Shown: one piece after another, positions 3,148-32,000 of the stretch
Layout of the letters: each line of letters opens with the position of its first letter
Position numbering within the stretch: the first letter of the stretch is position 1
DNA from: Crocosphaera subtropica ATCC 51142
GTDB taxonomy: Bacteria; Cyanobacteriota; Cyanobacteriia; Cyanobacteriales; Microcystaceae
Assembly (NCBI RefSeq): GCF_000017845.1
Contig: NC_010546.1
Coordinates: forward strand, 3,870,001-3,902,000
Direction: 5' to 3'
Length of the DNA stretch: 32,000 nt
The notes under the pieces: model-generated
Database searches by the model: none
Told to the model about the DNA's origin: nothing
The model's input: only the letters and a program-made list of their open reading frames with translations
Program-made: the position numbers and the translations under genes

Positions 3148-4521
3148 TTATGAATTGTTAATTATTAAAGAGCGTTTCATCATTTCTAAAGCAACTTTTA
3201 GATTAGCTTGTGTCCATAATAAAGGAGTGGCATCTCCTGGGACATAAGCTCCTTTTTCTAAATAATATAATTCAGGACAGTGAAAGCCACCAAAAGGACT
3301 ATCTGAGGAAGTGATTTGCCCCAAAGAACGGTTAAGATAATAGGTTTGTTTTTCTAGATAGATTGTTTCTTTTGTTTGTTGAAATTTAAGACCCAAGATA
3401 GCAGAAATAATGGGATCAAAAATGCACCATTGGGCTTCTTCTCCTAGTTGTAATTCTCGATCATTATCTTTAAACCATTGTTCTCTATCCCTAGAAAGAG
3501 TCGTCCGAATTTCTAGGGGAACTTCTTGATAATTTTTACACCAAAAAGAATCTTTTAAATAGCGTCTAATCCCATAATCACCTTGTAAGTGATTAATAAC
3601 ATCGTCAAGAATTTTATCAGCTATTTCTCCTTTAATTATTTGTAGGGGATAAATTAAAAAGAGTAACGCTGAGTCGTAGCGTCGATTTTTAGGCTTTTCC
3701 TGAATACACTCTGAAGGTAAAATTTCCTCTAGTGCTTTTTTTCCTTTTGTGATTAATTCATTGACAAACTCAAGATCAATCACTGTATTATGTCCTTTTA
3801 AATCATTGTTTAATGGTAATTCTTGAAATAATCGTTTAAACTCAGTTAGACCAGCTACAACCACCCCAATGCTAGAGGCTTCAATTTTTGGCTCTTCTTC
3901 CCAATGACCGCTATCTTCATCATGCCAATATTCAATGGCATGAAAATAAGCCACAAAAAGACTGATAGTTTCTAATTGTTCAAGGTTAGTCTTTAATCTT
4001 TTTTCTCGTACCAATTTACAATAAAACCAGACAAAATATCCTAGAGCATCATTTTGAGCATGATTCCATTCTTGGTCAATTTCTTCTAAAGTTTCTCCCT
4101 TAAAACGAATATGGGGACGCTGCATCATTTCGTTTTTACCAACTTGGCCATTAATAATATGTAGAAACCGTGATTGATGGGTTTGAAAATATTGCACTAG
4201 AGTATGAACTGTTTTGACTGCTACATCAATCTGACCACACAAATAATGAGCATAGGCTAAATAAATATTATCCCTAACCCAAACATTACTATATCCTGTA
4301 TATTCAGTATTAGAAATGACGGCAGCAGCAGGAAATAACCCATTATCCAAACGAGGAAAATTAAAGGTTTTGTGCTGTTCTAATAAGTGAGTCATTCTTT
4401 GAATGTCTGATAAAGAATAGTCTGAAGAAATTAACTGACCAATGGTTTGATTATGAATGATCATTTCTAAATATTGCCTGTTAAGAATTTGCCTCGACCG
4501 AAGCGTAATGATAATTGTCAC
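3148..4521 (-). CDS. Glycoside hydrolase family 15-like protein (glucoamylase / phosphorylase-kinase alpha-beta-like (alpha/alpha)6 barrel)
   Basis: 457-aa ORF. It has GH15-type motifs: YSNVWVRDN near the N-terminus, HAQNDALGYFVW, an acidic EEPK segment, and C-terminal LLWTQANL. Confidence 0.75.
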   Translation of the reverse strand: MTIIITLRSRQILNRQYLEMIIHNQTIGQLISSDYSLSDIQRMTHLLEQHKTFNFPRLDNGLFPAAAVISNTEYTGYSNVWVRDNIYLAYAHYLCGQIDVAVKTVHTLVQYFQTHQSRFLHIINGQVGKNEMMQRPHIRFKGETLEEIDQEWNHAQNDALGYFVWFYCKLVREKRLKTNLEQLETISLFVAYFHAIEYWHDEDSGHWEEEPKIEASSIGVVVAGLTEFKRLFQELPLNNDLKGHNTVIDLEFVNELITKGKKALEEILPSECIQEKPKNRRYDSALLFLIYPLQIIKGEIADKILDDVINHLQGDYGIRRYLKDSFWCKNYQEVPLEIRTTLSRDREQWFKDNDRELQLGEEAQWCIFDPIISAILGLKFQQTKETIYLEKQTYYLNRSLGQITSSDSPFGGFHCPELYYLEKGAYVPGDATPLLWTQANLKVALEMMKRSLIINNS

Positions 4522-4611
4522 GATAAGGGATCAGAGGTACTATCCGTAATGATAGGGAGTACGCTTTAGGAAAAAACTCGGAGAACTTGAAAGTTACGAG
4601 GGTATTTTTCT

Positions 4612-6773: not shown

Positions 6774-7382
6774 TTACCACATACCAGGAACAGGCTCAGG
6801 AGGGGGCGCAATTTCAGCTTGATTTTCTTCCATAGGAGGTAAACTGACATCAGGACGATCCCAATCAATGTCGGTTCTGGTTACTAAGGGAACTTCCCGT
6901 AAATCTAAACGAGATACCCAACGGGGACGAGCTTCAGCAACATAGACATCCAGGTCAGGTCTTTGGTCACTAATAATAACCCATTTACCGTCTTCTTCTC
7001 TCATGATGACATCGGCACCAGCAACTAAAGTAGGCCAGTAACCAGGCATTTGAGCGGTAACGTGCCAAACGTCCCGTTCTCCTGTGGTCAAGCCAACGTC
7101 ATAATTCATTCTGACGTGAGCATTTTTTTCCTGACCAGCAGAAATGATTTGAACTTGAGCTACGTCTCCGGTAACACCACGAATACGACCGATGATATAG
7201 TCTTCAAATTTGAATTCTAACCAATCGGCACGATAAACATCGATGGGATCTTGGAGAACATGACCTCGTAATTGACTAACAAGAACCTCTTCTTGAGCAG
7301 GTTCTGCTTGAGCAGGGGAAATCCCCAGTAAGGATAAGCCGAGAGCTAATCCTGCTAACATATGTGAGTGTTTCATAAACAC
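6774..7382 (-). CDS. Secreted hypothetical protein
   Basis: 202-aa ORF with a signal peptide (LAGLALGLSLLGISPAQA|EP). I recognise no family. The C-terminus is proline-rich. Confidence 0.65.
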   Translation of the reverse strand: MFMKHSHMLAGLALGLSLLGISPAQAEPAQEEVLVSQLRGHVLQDPIDVYRADWLEFKFEDYIIGRIRGVTGDVAQVQIISAGQEKNAHVRMNYDVGLTTGERDVWHVTAQMPGYWPTLVAGADVIMREEDGKWVIISDQRPDLDVYVAEARPRWVSRLDLREVPLVTRTDIDWDRPDVSLPPMEENQAEIAPPPEPVPGMW

Positions 7383-7682: not shown

Positions 7683-9239
7683 TTAACTGAGGTTTAATTT
7701 GTCCACGATGCCACTGAAATCGATATTTTTGAAGAAATTAACTAATTTTTCCAGCCATTGAACCTTATTGGCTTGAGGAAGTTGTTGAGACGAGGGGGTT
7801 ACTGTCTCAGGTTGAATCGTTTCGGATAAGGGAGTTGAAGTTTCTTCTACCCCTGTCTCTGATGAGTCTTCAGTCAAAATTTCCTCAGTCATTACTTCTT
7901 GATCATTTTCTAGTTCTGTGGGTTCAATGATGGTTTTTGGTTCTTCTACCACTGTTTGAGTCTTAGAGGGGGTTACAGTTTCCGAGGAAACGGGTAATGG
8001 TTCTGGGTTTTCAGTTTCTTGAGTAATGGTTTCATCAGAAGCAGGTAATGGTTCTATCGTTTCGGTTTGTTGGATAATTGTTTCTGGAGAAGGAGATCCA
8101 GATTCTATCATTTCAGTTTCTCGGGTAATGGTATCATCAGAAATCGGTAATGGTTCGGTATCTTCTTCAGTGGTGTTTTCAGAAGTAGGACTGATGATGG
8201 GTTCAGAAGCAGACTCTTCAACTGGTTCTTGAGGTTCTCTGGTTTCTTCTACTGTGGGGGGAGGTGTTTCTTCTTCAATGGGTTCGGGTTCTAACGTATA
8301 AATATAATTAGGATCAACAACAGAACGGGCAACCTCAACAGACAGTTCTCCCCGTATCAGTTTAGAGAGGGTATCTTCTCCATTGGGTTCATAGGTAATG
8401 ACTCGAACAGTATCATTAAAAGCGTTATTAACTTCCTTGCCTTGTTCGTCAATAAATTCTAACTGTACCCAGTTTTTCCCAGGTTCAAACCCTTTTAAAT
8501 AAATCGGTTGCCACGTATCGATTAAAAAACTTTCCCCGTTGATGGTGGCTTTAATGCGCCAGTCTATAATCTCATCATTAGGATCACTTTGAGCAATAAA
8601 ATGTAAGGGTGCATTGGTTAGATAAAAATCTAACATAATCGGTTCAGCCCCGTAACTTCCCTGGGGGCGACTGTAAGTAAGGAGAGGAAGGGAAGAAGAG
8701 GGGGAGTTATCTTCGGTTTCTGTAAACACACTAAAAGTAGTTTGTGCATAGGCCCCTTCATTTTTAAAACTTTCGTGCCAAGGACGAGAGGCAAACACGC
8801 GAATGGTATGGGTTCCTGGGGTTAAATCTTCTAAAATAATCGGTTCATCAAGATTATAAACCGCCCGATAGGGTTGATTATCCACAAAAAGGTGTAAATG
8901 GGGTCCGAGTCCTAGGGTTTCGTCTTTAAAGAGGGGATAGTCTTTGACCTCTAATTGCACCGGTACGGTGGTTTCTGAGAACATTTGCCGAGGTTTGGGA
9001 CTAATAATGCTCACTTGAGGATGATATTGGGCTAAAATCTCTTTCAGTTCTTGGATAACCGTTGGAGGGGCTACTTCTGTTAATTTTGTAGTGGTGACGG
9101 GAACAGGAGAGGGTTCTATCACTGGGGAAGACGCTACAACGCGATCGCTACACCCTAGTAACCCCCAACTCAGAAGACCAACGAGAATAGAACTGGACAG
9201 AACTTTAATCAATGGCGATCGCTGATTCAACCCAAACAC
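7683..9239 (-). CDS. Probable lipoprotein with a globular N-terminal half and an acidic T/E/P-rich repetitive C-terminal half
   Basis: 518-aa ORF with a signal peptide and LLGC|SD lipobox. Residues from about 318 onward are low-complexity with repeated EPLP(I/A/V)S(D/S)(D/E)T(I/V)T units. Confidence 0.75.
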   Translation of the reverse strand: MFGLNQRSPLIKVLSSSILVGLLSWGLLGCSDRVVASSPVIEPSPVPVTTTKLTEVAPPTVIQELKEILAQYHPQVSIISPKPRQMFSETTVPVQLEVKDYPLFKDETLGLGPHLHLFVDNQPYRAVYNLDEPIILEDLTPGTHTIRVFASRPWHESFKNEGAYAQTTFSVFTETEDNSPSSSLPLLTYSRPQGSYGAEPIMLDFYLTNAPLHFIAQSDPNDEIIDWRIKATINGESFLIDTWQPIYLKGFEPGKNWVQLEFIDEQGKEVNNAFNDTVRVITYEPNGEDTLSKLIRGELSVEVARSVVDPNYIYTLEPEPIEEETPPPTVEETREPQEPVEESASEPIISPTSENTTEEDTEPLPISDDTITRETEMIESGSPSPETIIQQTETIEPLPASDETITQETENPEPLPVSSETVTPSKTQTVVEEPKTIIEPTELENDQEVMTEEILTEDSSETGVEETSTPLSETIQPETVTPSSQQLPQANKVQWLEKLVNFFKNIDFSGIVDKLNLS

Positions 9240-14696: not shown

Positions 14697-16301
14697 ATGA
14701 TCAACCCATTGATTTACGAAATTGGTACATTAATCCTTGTTTTAGGAGCTTCTGGTATCAACTATCGTCAGCTTCGTAACAGTCGTCTAAAACGAGAAGC
14801 AACCTTATTAAATCAACAAAAAGAGTTGACTCAAGAAAATGAGAATTTGAGCGAAAAATTACAGCAACTTGATAGTCTTAATGAAGAACTGAGACAAAAA
14901 AATAATAATTTACAACAAGATTATACTCATATTAAGCAACAAGTGACAGCTTTAGAGGAAAATGTTAGTCAATTGCACGACGAGAAAAACAATTTATCTA
15001 AGACGATTAAACAAGAACAAGATAAAGTTAATGTAGCTCAACAAACAAATCAATCGTTGCAGCAACAAAAAGAACAATTAGAAATAACTTATAAAAAAGA
15101 TTTATCTAACCTAGAACAAAAACTAGAAAGTCTTCAAAAAGATCAAGAGAAAACCAATACTCAATTACAAGAAACCAGTAAAAGCAATAATTCTTTGAAC
15201 CAAGAGTTAAAAACAATAATAGCTAAACGAGAAGAATTAGAAAATAGTTTAAACCGACAACAAGAAACTGTTGCTTCCTTAGAGAAACAACTAGAAACTG
15301 TATCTCAGGAGAAAAATAGTTTAGAGAAAGAACTACAACAGCGAATTAAAACGATTACCGAAGAAAAACAGTCTCTAGAAAATAGTTTAAATCAACAACA
15401 AAAAACTATTGCTTCCTTGGAGAAACAACTAGAAACTGTATCCCAGGAGAAAAATAGTTTAGAGAAAGAACTACAACAGCAAATTAAAACGATTACCGAA
15501 GAAAAACAATCTCTAGAAAATAGTTTAAATCAACAACAAGAAACTGTTACTTCCTTGGAGAAACAACTAGAAACTGTATCCCAGGAGAAAAACAGTTTAG
15601 AGAAAAAACTACAACAGCAAATTAAAACAATTACCGAAGAAAAACAATCTCTAGAAAATAGTTTAAATCAACAACAAGAAATCATCTCATCTCTAGAAAA
15701 AACACGGAAAACCTTAGAAAAAGAAAATAATAGCTTACAGCAAGAACAACAAGAAAGCCAAAAAGTTTATGATGAAAAAGATGAGCTTAAAAAACAACTC
15801 AAACAACAAGAAGAAATAGTTACAAAATTGCAAAATCAACTCAACACAATAGAACAAGAAAAAGAAACCGTCGAAACTCAGCTAAAACAAGAAATTGAGA
15901 AGATTGCTAAGGACAAAGAAAAGTCCAGTAAAGGTAAAATAGAAGAAACTGAAAATATTTCTGATGTAAATAAGAAAACTGAATCAGGAGAAAAAAAATC
16001 GAAAAAAAAAGCAGAAGAAAGCCAAGAAAAAATAAAAAATGAAATTATTTTAGAAGGAAAAAAACTGGTCGTAGTCGGTAGTCTTAATAGTATGAATAGA
16101 GAAATAGCCAAATCCTTAGTGCAACAAGCAGGAGGAACACTAACCAGTTCTCCAAGTTCTAGAACCCACTATGTTGTTGTTGGCAAAAACCCTGGAGACA
16201 AACTGAAAAAAGCACAAAAACTAGGAATTGCTCAACTGTCAGAAGACCAGTTTCTAGAAGCATTAGCAGCAACAGGAATAACAGAAATTAACCAGGAATA
16301 A
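14697..16301 (+). CDS. N-terminal TM anchor / ~400-aa coiled coil / lysine-rich linker / C-terminal BRCT-domain protein
   Basis: 534 aa. It has a hydrophobic N-terminus (IYEIGTLILVLGASGI), then Q/E/K/L heptad-rich sequence with tandem 46-aa repeats. The C-terminus GKKLVVVGSLNSMNREIAKSLVQQAGGTLTSSPSSRTHYVVVGKNPGDKLKKAQKLGIAQLSEDQFLEAL matches the LigA-type BRCT pattern. Confidence 0.8.
   Translation: MINPLIYEIGTLILVLGASGINYRQLRNSRLKREATLLNQQKELTQENENLSEKLQQLDSLNEELRQKNNNLQQDYTHIKQQVTALEENVSQLHDEKNNLSKTIKQEQDKVNVAQQTNQSLQQQKEQLEITYKKDLSNLEQKLESLQKDQEKTNTQLQETSKSNNSLNQELKTIIAKREELENSLNRQQETVASLEKQLETVSQEKNSLEKELQQRIKTITEEKQSLENSLNQQQKTIASLEKQLETVSQEKNSLEKELQQQIKTITEEKQSLENSLNQQQETVTSLEKQLETVSQEKNSLEKKLQQQIKTITEEKQSLENSLNQQQEIISSLEKTRKTLEKENNSLQQEQQESQKVYDEKDELKKQLKQQEEIVTKLQNQLNTIEQEKETVETQLKQEIEKIAKDKEKSSKGKIEETENISDVNKKTESGEKKSKKKAEESQEKIKNEIILEGKKLVVVGSLNSMNREIAKSLVQQAGGTLTSSPSSRTHYVVVGKNPGDKLKKAQKLGIAQLSEDQFLEALAATGITEINQE
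15231..15690 (+). repeat. In-frame 138-bp tandem repeat, ~3.3 copies, inside the coiled-coil CDS
   Basis: The marker GAAAATAGTTTAAA recurs at 15240, 15378, 15516 and 15654, an exact 138-nt (46-codon) period. The unit is LENSLNQQQETV(A/T)SLEKQLETVSQEKNSLEKELQQQIKTITEEKQS, with only a few substitutions between copies. Confidence 0.9.
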
Positions 16302-24634: not shown

Positions 24635-25813
24635 TTAATTAATTTCCCAATATTTACAAGTCGCATAAGCTAGGGTCACTACTCCAGTAATAATCGCAGA
24701 TTCATCAATGTCAAATAGAGGATGATGTAAGGGGTAATTAACTTTATCTTGATGTCCGACTCCTAAGCGAAACATGGTTCCTGGGGCGTGTTCTAAGTAT
24801 AAAGAGAAATCTTCTGCTCCCAAAGAAGGTTCTGGCAGTATCTCAACCTGATCGTTACCCCAAGCTTCTCGACAAGCACTTTCTAATATTTGAGTTAAAT
24901 TAAGATCGTTTTGAACTGAAGGAACCCCCCGACGATAATTGATTTCATACTTAGCATTGTAAGTATTACAAACATTGGCGATAATCCCTTCTATCCAGTC
25001 TGGTAAGTTGGCATGGGTTTCTGGATGTAGCGATCGCACCGTTCCGGCCATTCTCACATGATCAGCAATGACATTAGGTGCTCGGCCACCTGTAATTTGC
25101 CCAATGGTCAACACTAAAGGACGTAAAGGGTTCTGGGTACGACTAATGGCTTGTTGCAGGGTGGTAATCACCTGAGAGGCAATCCAAATGGCATCTACCG
25201 CCTCATGAGGACGTGCGCCGTGGCCTGACTCTCCTTTGATAAAGATTTCGATATCATCGGCTGCTGCGGTTAATGCTCCGTAACGAATGCCCACAGAACG
25301 GGCGTGAAGGGACGGAAATACATGAACCCCAAAAATGCCATCGACATCTCGCATCACCCCATCTTGCACCATCCAGCTTGCTCCCTGAGCAATTTCTTCA
25401 GCAGGTTGAAAGATAAAGCGAATGTTACCAGGTAAGTGTTCCCGTAACTGGGACAAAATCATAGCGGTTCCCAATCCTAGGGTGGTATGGACATCGTGAC
25501 CGCAAGCGTGCATCACCCCAGGTTTACAAGAGGCAAAGTCAAGTGGGGTCCGTTCTTCAATAGGTAAGGCATCCATATCAGTGCGGATGGCTAAAATTCC
25601 CTTATTCTTACCATTGCCCTCCAAATTACCCACAACTCCTGTTTTTCCTACGGCTTCTTGAACATGAAGGCCACAGGAGGAAAGAACTCCTGCTACATAG
25701 GCCGCTGTTTGGTATTCTTGCCCACTTAATTCGGGGTGGGCGTGTAAATGACGGCGTATTTCAATTAATCTCGGTGCGAGGTCTTCAGCGAGGGTTTTGA
25801 TTTGGGAGAGCAT
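24635..25813 (-). CDS. M20-family amidohydrolase (N-acyl-L-amino acid amidohydrolase / hippurate hydrolase type)
   Basis: 392 aa with the family pattern RRHLHAHPELSGQE, IRTDMDALP, MHACGHDVH and GTVRS. Confidence 0.9.
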   Translation of the reverse strand: MLSQIKTLAEDLAPRLIEIRRHLHAHPELSGQEYQTAAYVAGVLSSCGLHVQEAVGKTGVVGNLEGNGKNKGILAIRTDMDALPIEERTPLDFASCKPGVMHACGHDVHTTLGLGTAMILSQLREHLPGNIRFIFQPAEEIAQGASWMVQDGVMRDVDGIFGVHVFPSLHARSVGIRYGALTAAADDIEIFIKGESGHGARPHEAVDAIWIASQVITTLQQAISRTQNPLRPLVLTIGQITGGRAPNVIADHVRMAGTVRSLHPETHANLPDWIEGIIANVCNTYNAKYEINYRRGVPSVQNDLNLTQILESACREAWGNDQVEILPEPSLGAEDFSLYLEHAPGTMFRLGVGHQDKVNYPLHHPLFDIDESAIITGVVTLAYATCKYWEIN

Positions 25814-25894
25814 AGAAAATTGTCAGCATTTGGCATTATTTTAATGTTAGTATATTTTTTGTTATAATTTCTATAGTAATCCCTACAAGTATCA

Positions 25895-25915
25895 ACTATT
25901 AATAGTATTAATAGT
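25895..25915. promoter_or_regulatory. Perfect 10-1-10 palindrome (candidate operator) in the AT-rich leader of the FAAL cluster
   Basis: ACTATTAATA-G-TATTAATAGT. It also reads as a tandem TATTAATAG x2. A TGnTATAAT extended -10 match lies at 25860..25868. Confidence 0.35.
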
Positions 25916-26261
25916 ATTTTTTATCCTAATAATTTTCACTAGTTTATCTGGCAAATAATATATAATTCGTTTATTTTGTCAAGCACAAGGCAATAATTTA
26001 AGCTTAATTAGTATCAATTTTATTCGTCAATTTAGGAGTGACATATCAACTCATAATAAAGTTTTTATGGCATTAATAAAAATTTTATCTTACAACTCGA
26101 ACAGCTTAATCCCAGTCATAGCAAGGATTAGACTCTGATTACTCCCTTTATAGTCTGCGGCCGATGTAAGTGATTCACAAGTTTTTGACTTTCTCTTTCT
26201 AGGATACGACCAACAACAGTTAAAAACCCTAACTTAACTATGGTGCGAGGCTAAGAAAATT

Positions 26262-28091
26262 ATGTATTTGTATGACGATAATAGAAGAGGCTCAGTCCCC
26301 TTTAAAACAACGAACTTACCCTTGTGGGGGCATTCCTCTGAGCAAAATTTAGTTCGTATTCTACAACAAAGAGCCAATTATCAACCTTCAAAAACAGCCT
26401 ATATTTTCTTAGACCGTGGTGAAAGTGAACAGTGTTCCTTAACCTACGAAGAATTAGACAAAAAAGCCAGAGAACTCGCTGCAATTCTCTGTAACTCTCA
26501 TTTACAAGGGGAAAGAGCTTTATTGATGTATTCTCCTGGTATTGATTTTATTATTGCTTTTTTTGCTTGTCTCTATGCTGGTGTCATTGCTGTTCCCATC
26601 TATCCCCCTCGTCGAAATCAATCCCTCGACAGACTAAAAGCTATTATTGATGATTGTCAAGCCAAAGAAGTTTTGACGACCAGTTCCATTAAAAATAATC
26701 TAGAAAATAGCCTAATTAAGTATCCAGAATTAGCTCATTTTCAGTGGATAGCTACGGATAATTTACCCACCAGAATCAATGCTCATGACTTTCAACCCGT
26801 CAGAATCGATAAAGATGATCTTGCTTTTCTACAATATACCTCTGGTTCCACTGGTAATCCTAAAGGCGTGATGGTGAGTCATGGTAACTTAATCCATAAT
26901 GAGTGTATGGTCAAACAAGCATTTGGACATACAGAGCAAACAATTTTTGCAGGATGGCTACCGTTATTTCACGATATGGGACTCATTGGTAATGTACTAC
27001 AACCCTTATATTTAGGTATTCCTTGTATTTTGATGTCTCCTGTTGACTTTTTACAAAAACCCTATCGTTGGTTAAAAGCCATTTCCGATTACCGTGCTAC
27101 CACTAGCGGAGGTCCCAATTTTGCTTATGACTTGTGTATTCAGAAAATTACTGATGAACAACTGAAGACCCTGAATTTGAATAGTTGGGAAGTTGCTTTT
27201 AACGGGGCTGAACCGATACGGGCTGAAACCTTAGAAAAATTTGCCCAGAAGTTCGCTCCCTGTGGTTTTCGTAAAGAGGCTTTCTATCCTTGTTATGGAA
27301 TGGCTGAGGCCACCTTATTTATCACTGGTGGAATGTCATTTAATGCCCCCAAGTACAAAACAATAGACGAAAAAGCTTTAGAAGAAAATCAAGTTGTTGA
27401 AGTTGAAAGACAAAAACCCTATAGTCGAACCTTAGTCAGTTGTGGCCACGAATGGTTAGAACAAACAATCAAGATTGTTAATCCCCATTCTTTAACCGAG
27501 TGTAAGAATAATCAAGTGGGAGAAATTTGGGTATCGGGAGGAAGTGTTGCCAAGGGTTATTGGCAAAAACCTGACAAAACCAAAGAAACCTTTGAAGCTT
27601 ATTTATCTGACACAAAAGAAGGTCCGTTTCTAAGGACGGGAGATTTAGGGTTTCTCTCATCAGAAAAAGAACTCTTTGTTACAGGAAGACTCAAAGATGT
27701 CATGATTATTCGAGGACGCAATCATTATCCTCAAGATATCGAATTAACTGTTGAGCAAAGTCATCCTGCTTTAAGATCCAGTTGTGGGGCTGCTTTTGTT
27801 GTGGGCAATACGGGTAATGAGAGATTGATTATTGTTCAAGAAGTTGAACGAACCTATTTACGAAAACTGAATCAACAGGAAGTCACAAGTGCTATTCGTC
27901 AAGCTGTCGCTAAACATCACGGTTTACAAGTTCATGAAGTGATTTTGATTAGAACAGCAACCATTCCCAAAACTTCCAGTGGAAAAATTCAACGTTATCG
28001 TTGCAAAGAACAGTTTTTAAAGCAGATGCTCGATTATTTACCCTCAAACTCTTCCTGTTCAACTCAGGTTACCCTAAAAAGAACCGCTTGA
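26262..28091 (+). CDS. Fatty acyl-AMP ligase (FAAL; acyl-ACP synthetase type adenylation enzyme)
   Basis: 609 aa. The adenylation core YTSGSTGNPKG is encoded at 26835..26867. Further motifs are GLPCILMSP-type, YGMAEATL, the FAAL-typical ...LVSCG... segment after an inserted stretch, GDLGF, GRLKD and PKTSSGKIQR. A stand-alone ACP and a PKS lie downstream. Confidence 0.9.
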   Translation: MYLYDDNRRGSVPFKTTNLPLWGHSSEQNLVRILQQRANYQPSKTAYIFLDRGESEQCSLTYEELDKKARELAAILCNSHLQGERALLMYSPGIDFIIAFFACLYAGVIAVPIYPPRRNQSLDRLKAIIDDCQAKEVLTTSSIKNNLENSLIKYPELAHFQWIATDNLPTRINAHDFQPVRIDKDDLAFLQYTSGSTGNPKGVMVSHGNLIHNECMVKQAFGHTEQTIFAGWLPLFHDMGLIGNVLQPLYLGIPCILMSPVDFLQKPYRWLKAISDYRATTSGGPNFAYDLCIQKITDEQLKTLNLNSWEVAFNGAEPIRAETLEKFAQKFAPCGFRKEAFYPCYGMAEATLFITGGMSFNAPKYKTIDEKALEENQVVEVERQKPYSRTLVSCGHEWLEQTIKIVNPHSLTECKNNQVGEIWVSGGSVAKGYWQKPDKTKETFEAYLSDTKEGPFLRTGDLGFLSSEKELFVTGRLKDVMIIRGRNHYPQDIELTVEQSHPALRSSCGAAFVVGNTGNERLIIVQEVERTYLRKLNQQEVTSAIRQAVAKHHGLQVHEVILIRTATIPKTSSGKIQRYRCKEQFLKQMLDYLPSNSSCSTQVTLKRTA

Positions 28092-28240
28092 GGAAAAAAT
28101 AATTTTTCTAGAGTTGTTAATCCTCGAATCGAAGAAACTCTCAGTCAAACAATGCTTACTCAAAAAAGTCAATATTTAGGTGTTAATTTTTTGAAGTGTC
28201 TGGGAATTATAAATTTGTAAGTTTACAAGTTTGTGATTCT

Positions 28241-29167
28241 ATGACTTCCTCAACGGTACAACCATCACTCACTGTATCCAGTGCTTCTCTGGGAAAAACT
28301 AAAAGACGATTCATTATTAGTTTAAGTATTGTGTCTTTAGTTGGTTTTTCTCTGGCAATATATCAAGTTTTCACTACTCGGATTGGACTTCTAGAAATTA
28401 GTCTTTTCCTATTAATGAGTGCTTGTAGTGCTATTGGAATAACAGTTGGTTTTCATCGTTATTTTTCCCATAAAGCCTTTAAAACTACCCGAACCATAGA
28501 GATTATTCTAGCGATTCTTGGTTCTATGGCTGGACAGGGTTCAGTCACTTCCTGGGTTTCAGTTCACCGTTGTCACCACAAATACAGCGATCAGTTAGGA
28601 GATCCCCATTCCCCTCATTTACATGGAGAAGGATTGCGGGGTAGAGTATTAGGGCTATGGTATGCTCATCTCGGCTGGCTATTAAATGACGATCTTCCTA
28701 ATTCTTTGGTGTTTGCTAAGGACATGATACAAGATCGGACAATGGTAGTCATCAATCGTTTCTATATCCTATGGCTGGCTTTAGGTTTATTGATTCCTGC
28801 AATGTTAGGAGGACTCTTAACTGGCACTTGGCATGGTGTTTTCCAAGGATTTATTTGGGGTGGACTCGCTAGATTATTTTGGACATTCCATAGTGGTTAT
28901 ACCATTAATTCTGTTGCTCATGTGTTTGGAAACAGCTTTTTGAAAAGTGATGATAACAGTAAAAATAACTTATTGTTAGCCCTTCCAACTTATGGAGAGG
29001 GATGGCATAATAATCACCATGCTTTTCCTCAATCGGCTAAGTTTGGTTTAAAATGGTGGCAAATTGATTTAGGCTATTGGTTTATAAAAGTTCTACAATG
29101 GATAGGTCTAGCTTGGGATGTCAAAATTCCTAGCAATGAAATGATCGAAGCTAAAAAAATTGTTTAA
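28241..29167 (+). CDS. Membrane-bound fatty acid desaturase, Delta9/DesC-like histidine-box family
   Basis: Three His boxes: HRYFSH (28454..28471), HRCHH (28565..28579) and HNNHH within GEGWHNNHHAFP (29006..29020). It has four hydrophobic helices. The track ORF begins at GTG 28196; ATG 28241 (MTSSTVQ...) is the more plausible start. Confidence 0.9.
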   Translation: MTSSTVQPSLTVSSASLGKTKRRFIISLSIVSLVGFSLAIYQVFTTRIGLLEISLFLLMSACSAIGITVGFHRYFSHKAFKTTRTIEIILAILGSMAGQGSVTSWVSVHRCHHKYSDQLGDPHSPHLHGEGLRGRVLGLWYAHLGWLLNDDLPNSLVFAKDMIQDRTMVVINRFYILWLALGLLIPAMLGGLLTGTWHGVFQGFIWGGLARLFWTFHSGYTINSVAHVFGNSFLKSDDNSKNNLLLALPTYGEGWHNNHHAFPQSAKFGLKWWQIDLGYWFIKVLQWIGLAWDVKIPSNEMIEAKKIV

Positions 29168-29243
29168 TGCCCAACCAATAAAGACAATTGGTTAGTCTTA
29201 AGATATTTTACATTCTTAACCCACTTATTTAGGAGAAAAAATT

Positions 29244-29522
29244 ATGAATTCTCAACAACCCACTGTTTCTGATCCCCAAAAATCCCCTAGTTATTCTGAA
29301 ATTGAAGCTTGGTTAATCTCTTATTTATCTAAACTGTTAGAAGTTGACCCTGAAACCATAGACGTTAACAACACATTTGAAAGCTATGGTCTTGATTCTT
29401 CAGCATCTGTGGGCTTAAGTGGAGATTTACAAGAATGGTTAGAAACCGATCTTGATCCCACCCTATTATTTGATTATCCTACCATTGACAGTTTATCCCA
29501 TTACTTAGCAGAAAATGATTAA
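29244..29522 (+). CDS. Stand-alone acyl carrier protein (PP-binding)
   Basis: 92 aa, acidic. The phosphopantetheine attachment motif is GLDSS, with the Ser codon at 29397..29399. An AGGAG Shine-Dalgarno lies upstream of the ATG. Confidence 0.85.
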   Translation: MNSQQPTVSDPQKSPSYSEIEAWLISYLSKLLEVDPETIDVNNTFESYGLDSSASVGLSGDLQEWLETDLDPTLLFDYPTIDSLSHYLAEND

Positions 29523-29641
29523 TGGATTCAACAACTGATTAGTTTAGCTAATTATAATGTATTTTCTTTTAAGAATTGTCAGGATAACATAGAAAGTTAA
29601 TGGCATTAGAAACAGCTAAATCAAAGTCCAGGGATTGTATA

Positions 29642-29682
29642 GAAATTCAATGATCATTTACCGTAAACGAGCATTGAATTTC
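29642..29682 (+). other. Perfect 11-bp-stem hairpin in the ACP-PKS intergenic gap
   Basis: GAAATTCAATG (29642..29652) / CATTGAATTTC (29672..29682) with a 19-nt loop. No U-tract follows it. Confidence 0.5.
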
Positions 29683-29772
29683 TCCCCTGATCTCAGTTGA
29701 TTCCTTGGTTTGTATGGGTTATATATTGATGCTCGGAGATATCTCGGAATTTCCGATGATATAAAAAAGGTT

Positions 29773-32000
29773 ATGGTAGAACATATTGCAATTATTGGTC
29801 TAGGCTGTCGCTTCCCCCAAGCTAACAATGTAGAATCTTTCTGGCAATTGTTAAAAGGAGGTAAAGATGGCATTAGAGAAGTTCCGCCAGAACGCTGGAA
29901 CGTAGATGATTTTTATGATCCTCAACCGATAACCCCAGGAAAAATGAGTACCCGCCGGGGAGGGTTTCTCGATCAGGTGGATCAATTTGATGCTGGCTTT
30001 TTTCAAATTTCACCACGGGAAGCTGAACAAATTGATCCTCAACAAAGATTATTCTTAGAAGTGGCCTGGGAAGCTTTAGAAAATGCAGGACTCATTCCTA
30101 GTCAACTGTCTGGTACTCAGACTGGCGTGTTTGTGGGAATTAATAACAGCGACTATAATCGCATGAGTTGGCAAGATTTCGATTCGCTCAATGCTTATAG
30201 TGGAACAGGAACAGATGTGTGCATTGTTGCCAATCGTTTATCCTATTTTCTCAATCTCAAAGGACCCAGCCTAGCGATTAACACCGCTTGCTCTTCTTCT
30301 TTGGTAGCTATTCATTATGCTTGCCAAAGTTTACGGCTTCATGAATCAAATCTCTGTCTTGCTGGAGGGGTGAGCTTAATTCTGTCTCCAGAAGTAACGA
30401 TCGCCTTTTCCCAAGGCCGAATGATGGCTGCGGATGGTCGTTGTAAAACCTTTGATGCGTCCGCTGATGGCTATGTTAGAGGAGAAGGATGTGGTGTCAT
30501 TGTTCTTAAACGCTTATCCGATGCTCTAAAAGATGGGGATCAGATTCAAGGGATTATTCGGGGATCGGCAGTTAATCAAGATGGCTTAACCAATGGACTT
30601 ACTGCCCCCAACGGCCCATCTCAACAGGCCGTCATGGGTCAAGCCCTCAAAAATGCTAACCTACAACCCCACGAAATTAGTTATGTCGAAGCCCACGGAA
30701 CCGGAACCCCGTTAGGAGATCCCCAAGAATTTAGATCAATTACCACGGTCTTGAAACAGGGAAGACAACCAGAACAAACCTGTTGGGTGGGTTCGGTAAA
30801 AACCAATATTGGCCATCTAGAGTCAGCTTCAGGTATCGCTGGTGTCATTAAAACCGTTCTCTGTCTTCAACATCAAACTATCGTTCCTCATCTTAATCTC
30901 AACCAACTGAATCCTTATATCTCCCTAAAAAATATTCCGTTCACCATTCCCCAAGAATGCACTCCCTGGACAATTACAACGGAAAAACGCTGGGCTGGCG
31001 TTAGTTCCTTTGGCTTTGGGGGAACCAATGGCCATATCATTTTAGAAGAACCCCCTTCCTCTGAGTTAACAGCAACCTCTCAAGAGCAAAAACCTCACTC
31101 TTTAGACCATCCTTATCATTTATTAACCCTTTCAGCCCAAAGCAAAGAAGCTTTACAAGCTTTGGTTAAACGGTATCAAGATTTTCTCAACACACATCAG
31201 GCCGTTGCCCTCCAAGATGTATGTTTCACAGCTAATACGAAGCGATCGCAGTTTGAACATCGACTAGCTATGGTAGTCGGTTCTTCTAAAGAATTACAGC
31301 AACAATTAGCCACTTTAATCAACCACCCAGAAGAATCGGCCATTCGAGCCATAGCCCGTCCCCGTAAGTCCCCTAAAATGGCTTTTATGTTTACAGGGCA
31401 AGGTTCACAATTTGTGGGCATGGGACAGCAATTGTATCAAACTTCTTCTTTCTATCGTCAAATTATTGATGAGTGCGATCGCTTATTACAACCTTACTTA
31501 GAAAGGTCTTTAATAGATATTTTGTATGAGCAAACAGAAAATAGTCTTTTAGATCAAACAATCTACACCCAACCTGCTTTATTTTCTCTCGAATACGCTT
31601 TAGCTAAACTATGGCAATCTTGGGGTGTAAATCCTGTTGCGATGATGGGACACAGTGTAGGAGAATATGTGGCTGCTTGTTTAGCAGGGGTATTTAGTCT
31701 CGAAGATGGACTCAAACTCATTGCCTACCGAGGTCGTTTAATGCAAGCTTTGCCTGAAAATGGGGCAATGGTAGCTGTTTTTATTTCTGAAAAACAAGCC
31801 CAAGCTTTGATTGAATCCTATGGAGACAAGGTTGCTCTTGCAGCCATTAATGGCCCCAATAGTGTGGTAATTTCAGGAGAAAGGGATAGCATTCAAACCT
31901 TAATCACCACATTCGACAGCCAAGGCATTCAATTTAAAGAGTTGCAAGTGTCCCATGCTTTTCATTCTCCCCTCATGAAACCCATGTTGGCAGAATTTGA
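29773..32000 (+). CDS. Type I polyketide synthase, partial (KS-AT..., continues past the right window edge)
   Basis: Hand translation from ATG 29773 gives MVEHIAIIGLGCRFPQANNVESFWQLLKGGKDGIREVPPERW.... KS motifs: TACSSS (Cys codon 30289..30291), EAHGTGTPLGD and NIGHLESASG. AT motifs: FMFTGQGSQFVGMG, GHSVGE (Ser codon 31654..31656) and HAFH (31954..31965), which indicates malonyl specificity. The frame is open to 32000. It is absent from the ORF track because it is edge-truncated. Confidence 0.95.
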   Translation, partial: MVEHIAIIGLGCRFPQANNVESFWQLLKGGKDGIREVPPERWNVDDFYDPQPITPGKMSTRRGGFLDQVDQFDAGFFQISPREAEQIDPQQRLFLEVAWEALENAGLIPSQLSGTQTGVFVGINNSDYNRMSWQDFDSLNAYSGTGTDVCIVANRLSYFLNLKGPSLAINTACSSSLVAIHYACQSLRLHESNLCLAGGVSLILSPEVTIAFSQGRMMAADGRCKTFDASADGYVRGEGCGVIVLKRLSDALKDGDQIQGIIRGSAVNQDGLTNGLTAPNGPSQQAVMGQALKNANLQPHEISYVEAHGTGTPLGDPQEFRSITTVLKQGRQPEQTCWVGSVKTNIGHLESASGIAGVIKTVLCLQHQTIVPHLNLNQLNPYISLKNIPFTIPQECTPWTITTEKRWAGVSSFGFGGTNGHIILEEPPSSELTATSQEQKPHSLDHPYHLLTLSAQSKEALQALVKRYQDFLNTHQAVALQDVCFTANTKRSQFEHRLAMVVGSSKELQQQLATLINHPEESAIRAIARPRKSPKMAFMFTGQGSQFVGMGQQLYQTSSFYRQIIDECDRLLQPYLERSLIDILYEQTENSLLDQTIYTQPALFSLEYALAKLWQSWGVNPVAMMGHSVGEYVAACLAGVFSLEDGLKLIAYRGRLMQALPENGAMVAVFISEKQAQALIESYGDKVALAAINGPNSVVISGERDSIQTLITTFDSQGIQFKELQVSHAFHSPLMKPMLAEF

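Follow-up and report, generated by a model that had tools for sequence, protein, structure and literature searches.

A membrane desaturase gene between fatty acyl-AMP ligase and acyl carrier protein genes in Crocosphaera subtropica: a candidate JamB-type tailoring enzyme

The desaturase gene and its immediate neighbours

The stretch of DNA considered here, hereafter the window, comprises 32,000 nucleotides (nt) of Crocosphaera subtropica ATCC 51142 (NC_010546.1, positions 3,870,001 to 3,902,000 of the forward strand); coordinates refer to the window unless another locus (L plus number) is named. It carries a gene for a membrane-bound di-iron histidine-box desaturase (28241-29167, + strand, 308 aa, SCD1-like fold) located in a JamB-type context, between the genes for a fatty acyl-AMP ligase (FAAL) and for an acyl carrier protein (ACP). 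Its sequence and surroundings suggest that the enzyme is likely to act on carrier-tethered acyl chains.

The initial annotation had placed the protein in the Delta9 branch from its histidine boxes and four transmembrane helices, and this assignment was borne out. The motifs HRYFSH, HRCHHKYSD and GEGWHNNHHAFP are all present in the reading frame. The protein matched Pfam FA_desaturase (PF00487; E 5.4e-19, 69.4 bits against a cut-off of 29.7), and residues 49-301 matched mouse and human SCD1 (E 2.6e-28). As judged by alignment, the nine histidines and the asparagine of the SCD1 histidine boxes and NS..H motif are all retained (H72, H77, H109, H112, H113, N223, H227, H256, H259 and H260, numbered from the ATG), and these positions are invariant or at least 90% conserved among 60 homologues. 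An AlphaFold2 model built from the alignment of these 60 homologues (mean pLDDT 94.7, pTM 0.91) contains four long helices, at residues 15-45, 50-76, 175-194 and 197-225. In a Foldseek comparison of the model with the PDB, the only significant matches were SCD1 structures (E <1e-13, TM-scores 0.77-0.82). Since Pfam, the SCD1 alignment, the model and Foldseek agree, the protein is an intact membrane histidine-box enzyme of the SCD/Delta9 structural class with four transmembrane helices. Comparison with its relatives gave dN/dS values of 0.12-0.17, showing that the gene is under purifying selection, as is the neighbouring FAAL gene.

The start of the gene had been left ambiguous between GTG 28196 and ATG 28241. 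The reading frame 28196-29167 (+) is present and would encode 323 aa from the GTG or 308 aa from the ATG. In a DNA alignment including the two closest clusters, the ATG is kept in all relatives and the position of the GTG reads GTT or CTT. A stop codon sits five codons 5' of the ATG in one relative, and public annotations of the relatives give proteins of 308 aa. The ambiguity is thus settled by this conservation: the true start is ATG 28241, the 45 nt from the GTG to the ATG being non-coding and the protein having no N-terminal extension.

Within the spacer preceding the gene we noticed a 21-nt non-coding motif, TGGGAATTATAAATTTGTAAG (28201-28221, + strand), located 20 nt 5' of the desaturase ATG and including the near-palindrome TTGTAAGTTTACAA. 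It occurs once in the window, where none is expected by chance. It was found at the equivalent position in every Crocosphaera-type cluster (L001 9957-9976, L004 9961-9980, L007 6485-6504 and L132 ~4326-4346) and was absent from all other fetched loci. The spacer around it is poorly conserved, and the motif is kept even in L132, a cluster from which the desaturase has been deleted (see below). Its role could be that of an internal promoter, an operator or a 5'-untranslated element. A promoter and terminator scan of 25700-29900 gave nothing above shuffled expectation.

The FAAL and ACP genes said to flank the desaturase were both recovered by Pfam, NCBIfam and PDB matches. The upstream gene (26262-28091, + strand) encodes a stand-alone FAAL of 609 aa, which would take the role of JamA. 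It matches Pfam AMP-binding (E 2.5e-73) and AMP-dom_DIP2-like, and its best NCBIfam matches are FAAL families. Its top PDB match is the FAAL domain of a Picosynechococcus PCC 7002 polyketide synthase (PKS) (7R7E-G, 660 bits), followed by LpFAAL (3KXW) and then by FadD32, FadD23 and FadD28 (identities of the entries from PMC11837247, Table 1). Its dN/dS against relatives is 0.12-0.14. Because the prediction of FAAL specificity is still described as rudimentary in a review of these enzymes, an attempt to read the chain length from the FAAL sequence was dropped. The downstream gene (29244-29522, + strand) encodes a stand-alone ACP of 92 aa in the position of JamC (Pfam PP-binding, E 7e-16). Its phosphopantetheine serine lies within GLDSSAS, and its PDB matches are cyanobacterial and PKS ACPs. 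The three genes are co-directional, with spacers of 149 nt between the FAAL gene and the desaturase ATG and of 76 nt between the desaturase and ACP genes.

Related loci and a cluster without the desaturase

To place this arrangement among its relatives, the best 80 desaturase loci of a pattern-based scan, from one genome per GTDB species, were surveyed for FAAL and ACP genes nearby. Among the 17 best (L006-L022; at least 250 bits, 38-84% identity), an ACP gene adjoins the desaturase in all but L010 and a FAAL gene lies within a few kb in nearly all. None of the 63 weaker loci (at most 245 bits) has a FAAL or ACP gene. The split in bit score, at about 250, thus coincides with the split in synteny. 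Most FAAL-linked loci in the survey have the ACP gene directly 3' of a desaturase gene. The 17 best also include gammaproteobacterial loci with two or three desaturases, resembling polyyne clusters.

In a neighbour-joining tree of 92 sequences rooted on SCD1, the FAAL/ACP-linked desaturases formed one clade in 54% of bootstraps and in a further 44% with the stand-alone sister L031 included. The window desaturase grouped with those of two Crocosphaera metagenome-assembled genomes (MAGs) and a Nostoc in 77% of bootstraps. About 15 alignment positions distinguish the linked clade from its stand-alone homologues, several of them being common to SCD1. By neighbour-joining, the linked genes are one clade apart from stand-alone homologues, in a set without authentic JamB or TtuB and without canonical DesC.

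The best 120 database matches (at least 47% identity) come from patchy taxa rich in secondary metabolism, and the named organisms among them include no standard model cyanobacterium. All homologues of at least 47% identity whose context was inspected lie in FAAL/ACP clusters except L010. The linkage is kept across three different flanking contexts, and the close homologues are sporadic and located in secondary-metabolite-like surroundings.

Gene order as in the window was observed in Crocosphaera MAGs with desaturase homologues at 84% and 68% identity, the former being the best genome match among the 80 loci. There the cluster comprises a divergent M20 gene followed by genes for the FAAL, the desaturase, the ACP, a PKS, a methyltransferase and a flavin monooxygenase (FMO). 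The PKS of these relatives is 1259-1260 aa long, with the order ketosynthase, acyltransferase, ACP and thioesterase (KS-AT-ACP-TE; order taken from L004). It has no ketoreductase (KR) and no sulfotransferase (ST), and its TE is TE-II-like. A 275-aa S-adenosylmethionine-dependent methyltransferase and then a 465-aa FMO-like flavoprotein end the cluster. Genes outside the cluster differ from genome to genome; therefore the block is inherited as a unit. Beyond the cluster in L001 (17965-20927), glmS is followed by Tn7-type genes for TnsA and TnsB, as is usual for an insertion at attTn7. No account of this cluster type in Crocosphaera was found in a literature search.

In the window itself, the KS-AT part of a type I PKS (29773-32000, + strand) starts at ATG 29773, after a 250-nt spacer from the ACP gene, and continues beyond the window end. 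It matches the NCBIfam type I PKS model with 1010 bits, and its closest PDB entry is the KS-AT of CurL (881 bits). The AT domain carries the motif HAFH, which we take to be a malonyl-specific signature. On the other side, an M20D-family amidohydrolase gene (24635-25813, - strand; Pfam Peptidase_M20 and M20_dimer, NCBIfam TIGR01891 with 435 bits against a cut-off of 154) is divergent from and adjoins the FAAL gene, as it does in two relatives with different far flanks; no such gene was found upstream in L132. The amidohydrolase is a possible but unproven member of the cluster. At the equivalent position, lipopeptide-type clusters L087 and L090 have a gene for a GDSL lipase. Either hydrolase may supply the fatty acid.

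The FMO deserves separate consideration. In Moorena producens (L086), the order is FAAL-desaturase-desaturase-ACP, then a 620-aa FMO-like protein, then a PKS, and the 620-aa protein looks JamD-like by its position and by comparison with the jamaicamide cluster. The cluster FMO is only 29% identical to this protein. Among PDB entries it comes closest to an uncharacterised 'flavin-dependent monooxygenase' (8Z12-8Z17, 215 bits), and about 40 homologues at 65-76% identity stand alone on metagenome contigs (L093-L131), with no PKS, methyltransferase or FAAL gene nearby. Its identity as a JamD-like alkynyl halogenase is doubtful, and a bromo-alkyne product is not supported, because the cluster FMO is nearer to the stand-alone proteins than to that of Moorena. 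The possibility that the FMO gene is chromosomal backbone was rejected. Stand-alone and cluster loci have no flanking genes in common, and in three lineages whose downstream flanks differ the PKS is followed by the methyltransferase-FMO pair. For these reasons the FMO probably belongs to the cluster.

Scanning of metagenomes with the cluster FMO, followed by screening of the matches, yielded a natural deletion. In L132 (metagenome contig JAAUYD010268345.1), the FAAL, ACP, PKS, methyltransferase and FMO genes are intact and the desaturase gene is not. The FAAL, ACP and KS-AT are about 75-83% identical to those of the window at the amino-acid level, and purifying selection acts on the FAAL and ACP. 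The spacer between the FAAL and ACP genes is only 389 nt (4222-4610). It retains the 21-nt motif together with the first ~20 and the last ~25 desaturase codons (MTFLIGQPSLLLCSASLK...KWISLAKDVKIPSNGIIQAKIC, ending with the stop codon). The gene is thus reduced to a remnant of about 50 codons by an internal deletion that took out all histidine boxes and transmembrane helices. Since L132 lost the desaturase while the rest of the cluster stayed intact, the desaturase is, on this genetic evidence, best regarded as an accessory tailoring step, dispensable for the assembly line, and not as the cell's essential Delta9 desaturase. The initial annotation had asked whether the gene might be the sole desC, syntenic in genomes lacking the FAAL and PKS. 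The answer is negative: close homologues, apart from the orphan L010, are FAAL/ACP-linked, and the gene can be deleted.

Likely function and alternative readings

In the jamaicamide pathway, a C6 acid is attached to JamC by JamA, and the membrane-bound JamB turns the chain so tethered into the terminal alkene and alkyne; TtuABC performs equivalent chemistry on C10 chains, and JamB is stricter than JamA in its selectivity for the ACP (PMC8341276, PMC7063234, bioRxiv 10.1101/291195). The desaturase triad of polyyne pathways is also thiotemplated (PMC9828172). An alkyne cassette is operationally defined by the co-location of FAAL, desaturase and ACP genes and was found in thousands of genomes, of which 29 are cyanobacterial (PMC8406139), and all characterised members of such cassettes are desaturases or acetylenases (PMC8341276, PMC9828172). 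The FAAL, desaturase and ACP genes of the window are co-located on one strand in this way, and we therefore infer the order of action FAAL, desaturase, KS.

Taken together, these observations make it likely that the window enzyme is an O2-dependent, di-iron, four-helix desaturase of the JamB/TtuB lineage, acting on carrier-tethered acyl chains. That it is a JamB-type tailoring enzyme rather than a housekeeping DesC, as the initial annotation had proposed, is supported by gene order, by the linked clade, by the sporadic distribution and by the deletion in L132. By analogy, its substrate would be the acyl-S-ACP. In the mechanism we propose, the FAAL would adenylate a free fatty acid and load it on the stand-alone ACP, and the acyl-S-ACP would dock at the cytosolic face of the desaturase. 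The enzyme would then remove two hydrogens, or four if it has acetylenase activity too, and the distance from the thioester would set the position. The modified chain could next serve the KS of the downstream PKS as starter unit. From the complete clusters of close relatives one would expect a single extension with malonyl-CoA, after which the C-terminal TE would release a 3-oxoacyl product, as the 3-oxo acid or a derivative. The methyltransferase and the FMO would probably tailor the released product.

Several points weigh against this reading. L010 (9965-10930, Nostoc favosum CHAB5714) is an orphan member of the clade, 52% identical to the window desaturase, with no FAAL or ACP gene within 10 kb, and shows that the FAAL/ACP linkage is not absolute. 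The tree is a neighbour-joining and not a maximum likelihood tree, and canonical cyanobacterial DesC was outside the comparison set. The placement in the lineage depends on synteny and on a Moorena producens cluster as proxy: the window desaturase is 51% identical to P0068, which is itself 98% identical to a desaturase of the L086 cluster, and homology searches with the window desaturase and both Moorena cluster desaturases returned no match named JamB, CamB or TtuB. Finally, the cluster of the window past position 32000 is inferred from relatives only. The flanks of L010 carry SLH, DUF4198, GNAT and WD40 genes.

A narrower form of the JamB-type reading is that the enzyme is a bifunctional terminal desaturase/acetylenase like JamB (C6) or TtuB (C10), making an omega-alkynyl starter and a terminal-alkyne product. 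We regard this as possible but doubtful. The gene architecture is that of JamABC and TtuABC (PMC8341276). The relationship to P0068, and through it to the FAAL-desaturase-desaturase-ACP-FMO-PKS cluster of Moorena, points in the same direction, as does the FMO-like protein at the end of the relatives' cluster, with its 29% identity to the 620-aa Moorena protein. However, that FMO is less similar to the Moorena protein than to PDB 8Z12 and to the stand-alone cyanobacterial FMOs (65-76%). We know of no sequence signature that tells acetylenases from plain desaturases.

The contexts of other relatives also argue against a general acetylenase role. The nearest relatives retain FAAL, desaturase and ACP and feed different downstream machinery. 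In the closest ones outside Crocosphaera, the desaturases are 56-63% identical to that of the window. In L087 and L090 a GDSL lipase gene is followed by a cassette feeding KS-AT-KR-ACP and non-ribosomal peptide synthetase lipopeptide lines. In L089 (7101-11570), on a contig of a halophilic cyanobacterial MAG, four genes encode FAAL, desaturase, ACP and a methyltransferase of the cyclopropane-fatty-acid-synthase family, which suggests formation of an ACP-tethered alkene followed by methylenation or methyl branching. In L008 (7993-19985, Nostoc sp. DedQUE08) and L088 (5303-16764), the cassette is accompanied by a TubC-docked thioester reductase, a PlsC-type acyltransferase and a CDP-alcohol phosphatidyltransferase. 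L008 has in addition genes for an FAD-linked oxidase, a short-chain dehydrogenase/reductase, CdsA and a phosphatidylserine decarboxylase; L088 has a phosphoenolpyruvate mutase and phosphonate genes, a second FAAL-ACP pair and a P450. From their gene content, L008 and L088 look like dedicated ether- or phosphono-lipid pathways using a desaturated chain, and their reductase, acyltransferase and phosphatidyltransferase sets suggest long lipid chains. Since these contexts differ, and since a cyclopropane synthase such as that of L089 would need a cis-alkene, not all members of the sub-clade are expected to be terminal acetylenases. Such varied downstream partners would fit a portable starter-unit module, this being what such a module would do.

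Desaturation could alternatively precede loading, on a lipid- or CoA-bound chain picked up later by the FAAL, so that the ACP would not be the substrate carrier. SCD1 relatives use acyl-CoA and cyanobacterial DesC enzymes use glycerolipids, and a hydrolase gene lies 5' of the FAAL gene in several clusters (M20 in the window, GDSL lipase in L087 and L090), where it could fit such an order. Nevertheless, the ACP gene directly follows the desaturase gene in most linked loci, and the linked clade is separate from its stand-alone homologues. Dependence on an ACP has moreover been shown for JamB, TtuB and the polyyne triad (PMC8341276, PMC9828172, bioRxiv 10.1101/291195). We thus consider desaturation before loading improbable.

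It is more improbable still that the di-iron centre carries out another oxidation, such as hydroxylation, epoxidation, conjugation or UndB-like oxidative decarboxylation, on a tethered or free chain. In the membrane histidine-box superfamily the outcome of the reaction diverges with few substitutions, and the ~15 positions that set the linked clade apart could be read in this way; several of them, however, are shared with SCD1, a plain desaturase. The characterised cassette members, as cited above, all desaturate or form acetylenic bonds. Finally, it is hardly credible that the gene is a housekeeping Delta9 acyl-lipid desaturase (desC) lying beside the PKS cluster by chance: relatives are annotated as 'acyl-CoA desaturase' or 'stearoyl-CoA (Delta-9) desaturase' and no second desaturase gene occurs in the window, which spans 32 kb only, but the patchy taxa of the best 120 matches, with no standard model cyanobacterium among the named ones, the linkage conserved in three flanking contexts and the loss of the gene in the sister cluster L132 all stand against it.

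Returning to the JamB-type reading, one could speculate on the product. The compact pathway (FAAL-desaturase-ACP, KS-AT-ACP-TE, methyltransferase, FMO) might yield an unsaturated or alkynyl derivative of a 3-oxo fatty acid, small and diffusible, for example a methyl ester, a methyl ketone or a Baeyer-Villiger ester, with desaturase-plus and desaturase-minus chemotypes and with a specificity unlike that of JamB (C6) or TtuB (C10). In this full form the proposal is rather unlikely. If the specificity does prove to be different, the desaturase would be a new portable tool. Few enzymes can place an alkene or a clickable terminal alkyne on an unactivated fatty chain within an assembly line; ACP-dependent membrane desaturases and acetylenases belong to these few, and to our knowledge only JamB and TtuB among them have a defined specificity. 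With its one-module PKS and built-in release, a compact cassette of this kind would be simple to express, both to determine a third specificity and to make tagged short lipids, and the desaturase-minus L132 cluster offers a ready comparison for metabolomic discovery of the product. Without such follow-up, the locus only adds another orphan to the examples of a cassette that has already been mined in cyanobacteria.

Outside the cluster region, the window reads as ordinary cyanobacterial chromosome, with gnd, coaE and genes for a phytoene desaturase-like protein and a phytoene synthase among its contents. The gene at 14697-16301 (+) encodes a predicted 534-aa protein with long coiled-coil-like matches and a C-terminal BRCT domain, and lies in a stretch of odd composition, especially 15001-16000 (GC 0.295, AT skew +0.47). 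Two sizeable open reading frames, at 7683-9239 (-, 518 aa) and 6774-7382 (-, 202 aa), have no Pfam match.

Comparison with known systems

At the level of the protein, SCD1 (PDB 4YMK, 4ZYO, 6WF2) shares with the window desaturase the fold, the four transmembrane helices and the nine-histidine plus asparagine metal ligands. The identity between them is 26%, and a 10-residue insertion after the second histidine box separates them. The carrier would be ACP rather than CoA, and the electron donor would not be cytochrome b5.

The FAAL, the ACP and the KS-AT module ending in a TE recall the cyanobacterial olefin synthase (Ols) and the mycobacterial FadD32-Pks13 system, in which FAAL and ACP likewise pass an acyl chain to such a module. 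Against the FAAL domain of Ols from PCC 7002, the window FAAL reaches 660 bits, and the PKS and ACP match the Pks13 model. In contrast, the AT of Pks13 is specific for long-chain carboxyacyl groups whereas that of the window is of the malonyl HAFH type, and neither Ols nor FadD32-Pks13 has a desaturase between FAAL and ACP. Identity with the Ols pathway (KS-AT-KR-ACP-ST-TE) was rejected: the PKS of the relatives has no KR and no ST, and that of the window is cut off after the AT by the window end. Because KR and ST are lacking in the relatives' PKS, decarboxylative olefin formation of the Ols type is not expected.

Polyyne cassettes (cay, pgn, cepacin, collimonin) have in common with the window type the core of FAAL, desaturase and ACP, thiotemplated desaturation and release by a thioesterase. 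They depend on a triad of desaturases, a thioesterase encoded separately and a rubredoxin (PMC8406139), whereas the window type has one desaturase and a TE fused to the PKS. No rubredoxin gene was found in the window or in the clusters of close relatives. With one desaturase and no rubredoxin, identity as a polyyne cassette was rejected.

The closest likeness is to JamABC of jamaicamide biosynthesis (Moorena producens) and TtuABC (Teredinibacter turnerae), in which a co-directional ligase, SCD-like desaturase and dedicated ACP also head a PKS line. In these published systems the desaturase acts on the ACP-bound chain, and the window desaturase is about 50% identical to the cassette desaturases of Moorena. 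The systems differ in what follows: JamABC and TtuABC are joined to large PKS/NRPS lines, and the window-type relatives have a single KS-AT-ACP-TE module with a methyltransferase and an FMO. The FAAL-desaturase-ACP arrangement is therefore not unusual, being that of the published JamABC/TtuABC cassette, already mined in cyanobacteria (PMC8341276, PMC8406139). Novelty is confined to the downstream side, where it is joined to a one-module PKS-TE with a methyltransferase and an FMO, and to the naturally occurring desaturase-minus variant.

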